Below, piece by piece: positions 6,776 to 7,222 of a stretch of DNA of 9,822 bases; the first letter of the stretch is position 1; every line of letters begins with the position of its first letter. This stretch comes from a virus. Its lineage: Duplodnaviria > Heunggongvirae > Uroviricota > Caudoviricetes. The notes under the pieces are model-generated. The model did not search any database, had not been told where the DNA came from, and worked only from the letters and a program-made list of their open reading frames with translations. The position numbers and the translations under genes are program-made. The stretch lies in IMG/VR virus record IMGVR_UViG_2541047932_000007, positions 1-9,822 of that record; one strand, given 5' to 3'.

Positions 6776-6862
6776 TCACCACCAACGGATTGCCCAGACC
6801 AGAACAGCAATGGCCACAATACGAATGGCAAATGCCATTGCCCGAATAAGTTCAGCACTCAT
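6776..6862 (-). CDS. Small hydrophobic peptide C (28 aa), member of a tandem paralogous micro-ORF array
   Basis: Manual translation: [31 protein letters not shown] at 6860-6862, stop TGA at 6776-6778, one nt before the Rz ATG. Paralogous to peptide B with synonymous codon differences. Not in the ORF track. Weak Shine-Dalgarno. Confidence 0.5.
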
Positions 6863-6873
6863 CTTTTTAAAGT

Positions 6874-6996
6874 TCACGATTTCAGCGCAATGACCAGTTT
6901 TGCCAGCCCATACAGCATCGGAGACACAGCAATACCAACAGCCACCCACTTAATAGCAAAAGCCAGCGCTCTGCTGATGTCATCAGTCACTGTCAC
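6874..6996 (-). CDS. Small hydrophobic peptide B (38-40 aa), paralog of peptide C
   Basis: Lower part of ORF-track 6874..7146 (whose TTG start and N-terminal half are doubtful). GTG at 6994-6996 overlaps the peptide A stop (GTGA); alternative GTG at 6988-6990 gives MTDDISRALAFAIKWVAVGIAVSPMLYGLAKLVIALKS. Core SRALAFAIKWVAVGIAV aligns with [17 protein letters not shown] of peptide C. Confidence 0.5.
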   Translation of the reverse strand: MTVTDDISRALAFAIKWVAVGIAVSPMLYGLAKLVIALKS

Positions 6997-7124
6997 CCCA
7001 GCAGCCCCGACGAAGACAACATCATCCAGGCCATGGACAGAAAAAGAGCAACCAGCATTAGTGAAAATGAAATACCGACAATCACACACAGGACCTTTGC
7101 CGGCGTTATGAGTTTGTCTGACAT
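6993..7124 (-). CDS. Small hydrophobic peptide A (43 aa), related to peptide B
   Basis: Manual translation: MSDKLITPAKVLCVIVGISFSLMLVALFLSMAWMMLSSSGLLG. ATG at 7122-7124 with AAGGGG 5 nt upstream. Core VIVGISFSLML aligns with VAVGIAVSPML of peptide B (7 of 11 identical). Not in the ORF track. Confidence 0.5.
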   Translation of the reverse strand: MSDKLITPAKVLCVIVGISFSLMLVALFLSMAWMMLSSSGLLG

Positions 7125-7126
7125 AG

Positions 7127-7222
7127 CTACCCCTTAATTGCCACAATTAACTGGGATACTACCCATAAAAAAGGGATGCTCCAGACCAGCAAAAATTTCC
7201 AGTTTGGTAATTGACTAATCAT
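7127..7222 (-). CDS. Small hydrophobic peptide P0 (31 aa), possible fourth member of the array
   Basis: Internal ATG (7220-7222) of ORF-track 7127..7339: MISQLPNWKFLLVWSIPFLWVVSQLIVAIKG. GGGAG lies about 9 nt upstream. C-terminus QLIVAIKG resembles KLVIALKS of peptide B. Stop is 2 nt before the peptide A ATG. The upstream part of the track ORF spans the terminator hairpin and is rejected. Confidence 0.4.
   Translation of the reverse strand: MISQLPNWKFLLVWSIPFLWVVSQLIVAIKG

Follow-up and report, generated by a model that had tools for sequence, protein, structure and literature searches.

The stretch of DNA considered here (hereafter the window) comprises positions 1 to 9,822 of the IMG/VR virus record IMGVR_UViG_2541047932_000007, and is the late region of a lambdoid prophage of Escherichia coli in which all genes relevant to this analysis lie on the minus strand. 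Between the endolysin gene (R) and the spanin genes Rz/Rz1 it carries four small open reading frames (ORFs), here called P0, A, B and C, which an earlier interpretation made without database searches (the sequence-only reading) had described as a tandem array of four paralogous genes for single-helix membrane peptides; the coordinates, lengths and spacings that it gave are recovered from the sequence. On the evidence of comparison among homologous loci, we show that this region is a recombination-shuffled cluster of real inner-membrane small-peptide genes, placed behind a mobile terminator-leader head and chained into Rz. Its features are, in order of transcription:

7327-7416, minus strand: spacer of 90 nucleotides (nt) from the endolysin stop to the terminator, with the motif GCGGGCGGATAACACGAAATC at 7381-7361
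7294-7326, minus strand: intrinsic terminator hairpin, a 15-pair stem followed by a T-run, minimum free energy -24.2 kcal/mol, z = -4.98; 5' boundary of the cassette
7262-7293, minus strand: leader, with the Shine-Dalgarno sequence GGGAGG at 7272-7267; a diverged version of the conserved leader TTTCTGACCTTGAnnnnGGCAAGGGAGAA
7261-7127, minus strand: P0, long form from TTG 7261, 44 amino acids (aa), (M)IDFSKLIRELRLMISQLPNWKFLLVWSIPFLWVVSQLIVAIKG; an N-terminal amphipathic segment, then one membrane helix
7222-7127, minus strand: P0, short form from ATG 7222, 31 aa
7124-6993, minus strand: A, 43 aa, MSDKLITPAKVLCVIVGISFSLMLVALFLSMAWMMLSSSGLLG; a separate family
6996-6874, minus strand: B, 40 aa, with a GTG start and a further GTG at 6990
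6862-6776, minus strand: C, 28 aa, a short form of the B/C family

The four genes are all co-oriented with the lysis genes and their junctions are coupled: P0 and A are 2 nt apart, the stop of A and the start of B overlap as GTGA, 11 nt separate B from C, and 1 nt separates C from Rz, whose start at ATG 6774 is the one seen in all homologues. A has the Shine-Dalgarno sequence AAGGGG 5 nt upstream; B, with its GTG start overlapping the stop of A, and C, with its ATG 11 nt past the stop of B, have no such site. The C-terminal RWW codons of C, together with its stop, make up the Shine-Dalgarno-like sequence GGTGGTGA for Rz. Each peptide reaches a Kyte-Doolittle hydropathy of at least 1.9 in a 19-residue window, which bears out the single hydrophobic helix previously proposed for each, and ends within 0-3 residues of the hydrophobic segment (KG, none, KS and RWW, respectively); in B and C, conserved K/R residues lie at the edges of the hydrophobic stretch or within it. 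An AlphaFold2 model of P0110, a 60-aa full-length homologue of B, consists of a low-confidence N-terminal helix and one long helix at residues 23-59 (predicted local distance difference test score 86-92). The program-made ORF list, which had been said to miss all four genes, does give A as a discrete ORF; P0, B, C and Rz are subsumed there in longer frames of 70, 90, 57 and 192 aa.

In the coding test, each annotated frame was compared with all six frames by the uncorrected ratio of the proportions of nonsynonymous and synonymous differences (pN/pS), in short sequences and in pairs that are not independent. The ratio was lowest in the sense frame in every family (P0 0.38, A 0.46, B 0.20, C 0.29), in agreement with the earlier proposal of selection at the protein level rather than chance open frames. 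The antisense -1 frame ranks next because it shares third positions with the sense frame; it is likewise open in every homologue of A, B and C, so that openness alone is uninformative and the six-frame comparison was used instead. Between E. coli and Salmonella copies of the B core, pS is ~0.75 and pN ~0.14 (pN/pS 0.18-0.22), with variable sites distributed 13/7/30 over the three codon positions, and the C core gives 0.12-0.34. For A the ratio is 0.30-0.50 (one-sided Fisher p of 1e-4 to 0.01 in the most divergent pairs); for P0 it is 0.27-0.47 in most of the divergent pairs and 0.7-0.8 in a few pairs that include the window allele. At the level of the families, these comparisons establish the four ORFs as real protein-coding genes for small membrane peptides.

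The 31-aa product originally assigned to P0 is probably a 44-aa one: translation most likely starts at TTG 7261, 39 nt (13 codons) upstream of ATG 7222, in which case the feature extends past 7222. TTG 7261 is preceded by GGGAGG at 5-nt spacing, the profile phrog_6632 matches the 70-aa frame enclosing P0 over residues 28-69, and the N-terminus IDFSKLIRELR is without variation in an alignment of eight homologues from several genera and, overall, in at least six genera of Enterobacterales. Homologues beginning (M/V/L)IDFSKLIRELR.M, with ATG or GVG at the position of codon 1, occur in the Salmonella phages SPN3UB and SEN34 and in Enterobacter, Citrobacter, Klebsiella, Providencia, Pantoea, Brenneria, Sodalis and Symbiopectobacterium. 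ATG 7222 corresponds to the invariant Met14 of P0 and follows a Shine-Dalgarno-like (A/C)GGGAG by 8-9 nt (GGGAG at 9 nt in the window), and it may be a second translation start. Codons 2-14 of P0 are conserved even at synonymous sites (pS 0.20, against 0.75 in the rest of the gene), as seen at 7220-7261 in the window and at loci L033, L084, L085, L252, L257 and L258, and the 5' part of the long form of B is similar in this respect as judged by eye. Such conservation could mark a recombination arm, a translational control element or a dual-start switch. There is also an independent 31-aa form of P0 with a different N-terminus, MKMIKMDWKFLLVW (MKMIKMDWKF...), which overlaps the stop of an antirepressor gene as ATGA. 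Two loci carry this short P0 of 31 aa, MKMIKMDWKFLLVWLIPFLWVVARLITAIKR, followed by A and then Rz:

606-700 of phage Lys8385Vzw (L262): 31-aa P0, unannotated in the record
4500-4600 of locus L071: 31-aa P0, likewise unannotated

B and C are paralogues, to judge from their alignment, which is as previously described: over 20 aligned codons, 9 residues are identical and 6 of these are encoded by synonymous codons (BLASTP E = 2e-4), and full-length B and full-length C are 50% identical over 42 residues (E = 8e-14). Full-length members of the B/C family, 48-60 aa long, follow the pattern M.KYKRILLRLTMKNGLE.DAPVTDEI..AVAFAIKWVAVG...; B in the window is the membrane-helix core of this family without the N-terminal KYKRILLRLTMKNGLE.DAP domain, and C too is without the N-terminal domain. 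Full-length relatives of B (60 aa) are found in E. coli, E. marmotae and Salmonella, and full-length C (50 aa) in phages GER2 and phiSTEC1575-Stx2k. A short N-terminus, MSA[DE][LF]IR, is found on B-type and C-type cores alike, and locus L138 has the identical B-C junction, but after a full-length B.

Of the fourfold paralogy originally claimed, the kinship of B and C therefore stands, that of P0 with B holds only by way of an intermediate, and A belongs to a separate family. Direct comparison of profiles with hhalign gave probabilities of 1.5% for P0 against B/C, 0.9% for A against B/C and 0.2% for P0 against A. The reported alignment of A with B finds no support, and A as a paralogue of B/C is ruled out at a probability below 1%. 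A was also considered as a copy of the Rz membrane helix, with which it shares a VLCV motif, and this too is ruled out (0.6%). The likeness of P0 to the C-terminus of B is not recovered directly, and emerges through a hybrid protein, VVNLSKILKEFRLMGEKLSNWKFLLIWLLALVASSAPFLYGVARLIEAIKQ, from the leader-based census described below, which matches P0 of the window at E = 6e-15 and the helix and C-terminus of B with 45% identity over 29 residues (E = 2e-5). Through this bridging hybrid, P0 is related to B just in the helix/C-terminal module. Many relatives of P0 end in ...IRWW, as C does. P0, B and C appear to be assembled as mosaics from interchangeable N-terminal and helix/C-terminal modules, the latter ending in ...IRWW or ...P.LYG.AKLI.ALKS, and A stands apart.

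The terminator previously noted after the endolysin is confirmed and is strong, and it forms with the leader a head that recurs with these genes. Across 10 contexts in 5 genera (Escherichia, Salmonella, Enterobacter, Citrobacter and Klebsiella), the hairpin retains 13 conserved pairs, 5 of which show compensatory changes, and in all contexts examined the first small ORF begins 25-45 nt past a homologous intrinsic terminator. The leader TTTCTGACCTTGAnnnnGGCAAGGGAGAA follows the terminator in most of these contexts and is diverged in the window and at L033, L257 and L258. A census in which IMG/VR was scanned with the leader pattern alone returned at least 119 loci, the payloads of which, among the matches listed, include long forms of B and C, P0 variants, the P0/B hybrid and a VNINLGEW...VRWW family. 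The 60 nt upstream of the leader at these loci have a median folding energy of -21.3 kcal/mol, and 89% of 117 upstream regions, among the matches listed, fold at -15 kcal/mol or below. The terminator-leader head is thus a simple sequence handle for finding more payloads, at least four types of which were reached by one pattern.

In the case of long C, the gene is reached via an 8-codon mini-ORF after the leader. Mini-ORFs encoding MGREVLSL or MCREVCSL lie right after the cassette leader (1715-1745 of GER2 locus L086; 2470-2500 of Salmonella locus L247), with at least 35 in the leader census. The stop of the mini-ORF overlaps the GTG start of the long-form B/C genes, which points to coupling through a leader peptide. 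Pairing of the leader RNA with the Shine-Dalgarno site is weak, at just -3.6 kcal/mol for the consensus.

The spacer between endolysin and terminator occurs in the terminator-bearing E. coli insert types and in Salmonella; its 5' half is hypervariable and the motif GCGGGCGGATAACAC(G/A)AAATC is kept. A frame of 24 codons spans this motif, and Salmonella preserves the DNA motif alone and not the peptide. In the antirepressor (Ant)-A type of insert (L064) the spacer is altered, and on reading the sequence a terminator hairpin is not evident. A search of the minus strand from 6000 to 8700 gave no sigma-70-like site, and the space from terminator to first start is too short for a promoter plus leader. 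The A- and T-tracts on both flanks of hairpin 7294-7326 could allow termination in both directions. On the plus strand, a weak promoter-like site (7118-7147, CTGACA-18-CACAAT with TG, 9/12) lies antisense to the P0/A junction and exists at this P0/A junction only. Promoter-like sites in the region are fewer than in shuffled sequence.

The insertion is variable among close relatives. In a sample anchored on endolysins with 94-99% identical protein, 77 IMG/VR loci had both R and Rz, with the following arrangements:

R stop overlapping Rz start: no insert, 31 of 77 loci
R-P0-Rz, a P0-type gene only: insert of 307-314 nt, 19 of 77 loci
R-B(long)-A-Rz: insert of 496 nt, 8 of 77 loci
R-P0-A-B-C-Rz, the window type: insert of 651 nt, 18 of 77 loci
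R-Ant-A-Rz: insert of 1002 nt, 1 of 77 loci

The canonical cassette without an insert, to which the array had been contrasted, is thus the R-Rz junction of those 31 loci, and the variation in copy number among lambdoid prophages that had been anticipated is found, with none, one, two or four units at ~95% endolysin identity. Samples anchored on the peptides or the leader add the orders R-P0-A-Rz, R-B-A-A-Rz, R-B-A-B-C-Rz, R-B-C-Rz, R-C-Rz and R-C-C-Rz; since these samples are biased by their queries, counts from them are not population frequencies. Arrays of the window type, of which 90 copies in 21 haplotypes were compared, always keep a length of 645 nt without indels and have 11 variable sites in 490 peptide-coding nt; the changes within B are 2 synonymous and 1 nonsynonymous, and those within C likewise. 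The most similar DNA is on chromosomes of E. coli O55:H7, O103:H2 and O45:H2 (99.4% identity over 721 nt), and the locus is matched in some part by 2079 of 5426 complete E. coli genomes, with roughly 6,900 matching E. coli places. Isolated phages with the peptide genes are vB_EcoS-569R3 and the PhiR5/PhiR12 series, and a plasmid search returned only a few prophage-like matches.

P0 or B/C members stand between endolysin and spanin in three unrelated types of lysis cassette:

Type 1: signal-arrest-release (SAR) lysozyme
Type 2: GH19 endolysin of Enterobacter and Citrobacter, with P0 before spanin-like overlapping ORFs
Type 3: M15 peptidase of phiSTEC1575-Stx2k, with long C before a 60-aa ORF that has a lipobox-like LVGC and is spanin-like by look only

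Relatives are also found outside lysis cassettes, where the terminator is kept upstream and, for P0-type genes, the leader is kept as well wherever the sequence was read:

L248: B-like gene after tail-fibre genes, with a terminator on both sides
L250 and L251: two tandem B paralogues after a NanS esterase
L257: P0 between lambda gpI and gpJ, with a lipoprotein gene adjacent and, as at L248, a downstream terminator
SEN34 and Klebsiella and Pantoea myoviruses: P0 between baseplate genes V and W
L270, Dryocola clanedunensis, 1990-2600: four chained small membrane ORFs in a myovirus baseplate module, after two terminators

The Dryocola array consists of two MSEKGA... peptides (one of which ends in IRWW), a 50-aa B/C member and an N-truncated P0, joined by overlapping stop/start junctions.

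The individual peptides are already present in databases. Among the PHROG hidden Markov models, the 70-aa frame of P0 matches phrog_6632 (E = 1.3e-12), A matches phrog_4906 (E = 4e-22), B matches phrog_1115, 3246 and 4493 (E = 6.4e-25 to 5e-17) and C matches phrog_4493 (E = 3.8e-6), all of these families being entered in PHROGs as 'unknown function'. RefSeq, through the Prokaryotic Genome Annotation Pipeline, lists A, C, a 51-aa B (from CTG) and sometimes the 70-aa P0 as hypothetical proteins, and WP_001280935.1, WP_042004856.1, WP_032140280.1 and WP_001043230.1 lie on matching arrays (99.4% identical DNA) of O103:H2 strain 12009 and JMF1. The gene models in these resources are often wrong, being longer frames (70, 90 and 51 aa), and the cassette head, the modular kinship and the variable architecture are not recorded there. 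A falls into 105 protein clusters, with E. coli in every cluster that carries a source name, and tblastn matches it over its full length in 276 phage records, most of them of Shiga toxin (Stx) phages and, among the matches listed, mostly unannotated; it lies just before Rz in the inspected loci Min27, phi191 and Lys8385Vzw. Small membrane proteins are systematically under-annotated, and A is an example.

A profile scan of genome contigs with the P0 alignment reached 8 species, and one with the B/C alignment gave no match. At E up to 10, Pfam had no match to the peptides, NCBIfam a single negligible one (B to a major facilitator superfamily small-subunit domain, E = 0.16) and PADLOC none for six peptides; a PDB sequence search gave no significant match to the peptides, and Rfam, searched with the whole window at E up to 1, returned only a chance snoRNA match. 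A literature search for the R-Rz region, the RefSeq accessions and the peptide strings found nothing relevant. The peptides are thus present in databases as hypothetical proteins and, so far as these searches reach, have not been described as a system.

We hypothesize that the peptides have their effect at the inner membrane as the lytic cycle ends, adjusting membrane energisation and hence the timing or efficiency of lysis, a tentative reading to which we give rather less than an even chance. Because no promoter is detectable and a strong terminator lies directly upstream, the peptides would be silent in the lysogen and made late only; synthesis would occur, along with that of holin, endolysin and spanins, just when the late operon is transcribed by Q-modified, terminator-resistant RNA polymerase. 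The peptides would insert as single helices with the N-terminus inside, with conserved basic residues at the helix boundary, and our guess is that the terminator is retained with the cassette because leaky expression would harm. If lysis timing or membrane state is tuned in this way, phage burst and Shiga-toxin release would be affected. The natural variants with a bare R-Rz junction or with one, two or four genes have near-identical flanks and are ready isogenic comparisons.

Several observations weigh against this reading. The family searches found no similarity to holin, antiholin, releasin or defence families. Close relatives are entirely without peptide genes, which are therefore dispensable, and the presence of the same families in tail-fibre, gpI/gpJ and baseplate modules means that a strictly lysis-cassette role is not required. 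P2-like phages are not known to use Q antitermination, and a strong terminator within their baseplate operon is hard to fit with the idea that the terminator insulates the genes. The array-type B and C are young (array identity is above 99%), so that selection after their truncation is not measurable. Decayed copies also occur: B is frameshifted and C deleted at L246, A has an internal deletion at L167, C is frameshifted at L285, and P0 is interrupted by a stop codon in one array.

Antiholins such as S107, S21-71 and T4 RI are accessory membrane proteins of lysis cassettes. Others are the Mu gp25 'releasin' (PMC9239132) and LydC/LydD of P1 (PMC9025707). The peptides resemble such accessory lysis proteins as small membrane proteins that adjoin a SAR endolysin, pinholin or spanins, in their putatively late expression, and, for P0, in a possible dual start (Met1 and Met14). 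They differ in having no family match and no charged C-terminal tail, and in not being confined to lysis cassettes. Compared with holins and antiholins specifically, the helix is present, the charged hydrophilic C-terminal tail is absent and neither Pfam nor NCBIfam places the peptides in a holin family; the only match to the spanin family PF03245 is at 6280-6774, in Rz.

Phage morons, reportedly described by Juhala/Hendrix and by Cumby et al. and exemplified by HK97 gp15 and lambda bor and lom, offer another comparison. Like morons, the peptide genes are accessory, terminator-associated inserts between essential late genes, present or absent in near-identical phages at the same hot spots (lysis, tail-fibre and tail genes). 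It is possible, if in our judgement unlikely, that they are moron-type genes of use to the lysogen, or to the phage in some function other than lysis, such as superinfection exclusion at inner-membrane transporters, in arrays that accumulate with one target per peptide; if they do exclude other phages, they would form a new layer of accessory immunity. The order of the genes as well as their presence differs among near-identical phages, classical moron sites are occupied (after tail fibres at L248, between gpI and gpJ at L257, and in baseplate modules), and the modules are shuffled fast, as in an arms-race locus. Unlike morons, however, these genes have no detected promoter of their own on the minus strand from 6000 to 8700, including the ~30-40 nt between terminator and first start codon, and in the window the terminator lies upstream rather than downstream; placed upstream, it should stop read-through in the lysogen. 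The last gene, C, is translationally coupled to Rz across a 1-nt gap, the products are single helices of 28-60 aa in arrays, and PADLOC recognises none of them. An improbable account, which we rate below the moron one, would keep P0 and A as possibly functional and treat B and C as N-truncated leftovers of 50-60 aa genes, carried along between selected genes. It would explain why B and C are missing the conserved N-terminal domain of full-length members, why B has a GTG start, why neither has a Shine-Dalgarno site and why fragments and frameshifted copies are common at the locus, and polymorphism within the arrays is too low to reveal selection. But short forms that have proper starts and coupled junctions are found repeatedly and independently (MSA[DE][LF]IR, and the junction at L138), the 31-aa form of P0 is itself coupled by an ATGA overlap, the Dryocola array shares the style of overlapping stops and starts, and none of the 90 arrays sampled has an indel or departs from 645 nt.

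Type I toxins are also encoded in tandem loci, among them Ldr, Ibs, Hok and TisB. The peptides are like them in size (60 aa or less), in a single hydrophobic helix with few conserved basic residues, in tandem paralogy that resembles the ldr and ibs loci, and in a structured leader near the Shine-Dalgarno site, with which the conserved leader is able to pair. That they are modules of this kind, small hydrophobic toxins held by antisense or leader RNA, nonetheless seems very improbable. It would suit the synonymous conservation at the 5' end of P0, as well as the single promoter-like site of the plus strand, but that site is weak, is found at this P0/A junction only and belongs to a class rarer here than in shuffled sequence; the leader structure is weak as well, Rfam has no match, and neither an antisense RNA gene nor a toxin promoter was found in the locus, which is set in a phage late operon. 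The least credible alternative, which we hardly entertain, is that the ORFs are untranslated and that an RNA or DNA element accounts for their conservation. The open antisense -1 frame in all homologues of A, B and C could be taken that way, as could the leader and the first 14 codons of P0, whose nucleotides are more conserved than protein constraint accounts for; against this, pN/pS is lowest in the sense frame for every family, variability is mainly at third positions, and starts, Shine-Dalgarno sites and the hydrophobic helix are kept in homologues that are 50-60% divergent, from several genera.

Beyond a role in adjusting lysis, a broader proposal may be entertained, although we think it improbable to about the same degree as the moron account. 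The head and its payloads might constitute a mobile cassette system of temperate Enterobacterales phages, in which the head drives late-only expression of interchangeable membrane peptides of 28-60 aa assembled from shuffled modules, and which moves among lysis, tail and baseplate operons and builds up into arrays. In that case the peptides would be a new class of membrane effectors, whether modulators of lysis timing, modulators that sense superinfection or inhibitors of membrane-acting host defences, and the leader with the first 14 codons would act as a shared translational control or dual-start switch.

The peptide genes lie within a late gene order that runs, on the minus strand, from a DUF6645 (NanS-type) ORF through a terminator, a P21-type holin, a DUF1327/YdfR-like gene and a phage lysozyme to the peptide region and Rz/Rz1, and continues beyond these with a 74-aa ORF, an HNH endonuclease, the terminase genes and a protease-capsid gene:

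8369-8689, minus strand: P21-type holin, PF04971 match
8364-8014, minus strand: DUF1327/YdfR-like gene
7950-7417, minus strand: endolysin (Phage_lysozyme, Pfam)
6774-6280, minus strand: Rz (i-spanin), PF03245 Phage_lysis, E = 1e-49
6554-6369, minus strand: Rz1, embedded in Rz
6059-6283, minus strand: 74-aa Cys-rich ORF overlapping the Rz stop (ATGA), without a Pfam match; a RefSeq hypothetical protein

At approximately 8575-8586 on the minus strand, the start of the holin reads ATG TAC CAG ATG, the dual-start arrangement of the S21 71/68 type, as would fit a phage-21-like pinholin ahead of the endolysin. A spacer of ~110 nt (8620-8734, minus strand), which ends in a strong terminator (8651-8623), separates the DUF6645/NanS-like ORF from the holin. 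This esterase-holin position is that of the prophage small RNAs PasA/PasC according to a 2026 preprint, and the papers on prophage small RNAs (Pas, AgvB) concern this spacer and not the peptide site; Rfam has no match within 8620-8734. Finally, the small terminase subunit (4203-4767, minus strand) appears split, with the N-terminus of Terminase_2 in an 80-aa ORF (4767-4525) and the rest in another frame (4586-4203, 127 aa, without a Pfam match), which may represent a frameshift in a cryptic prophage.

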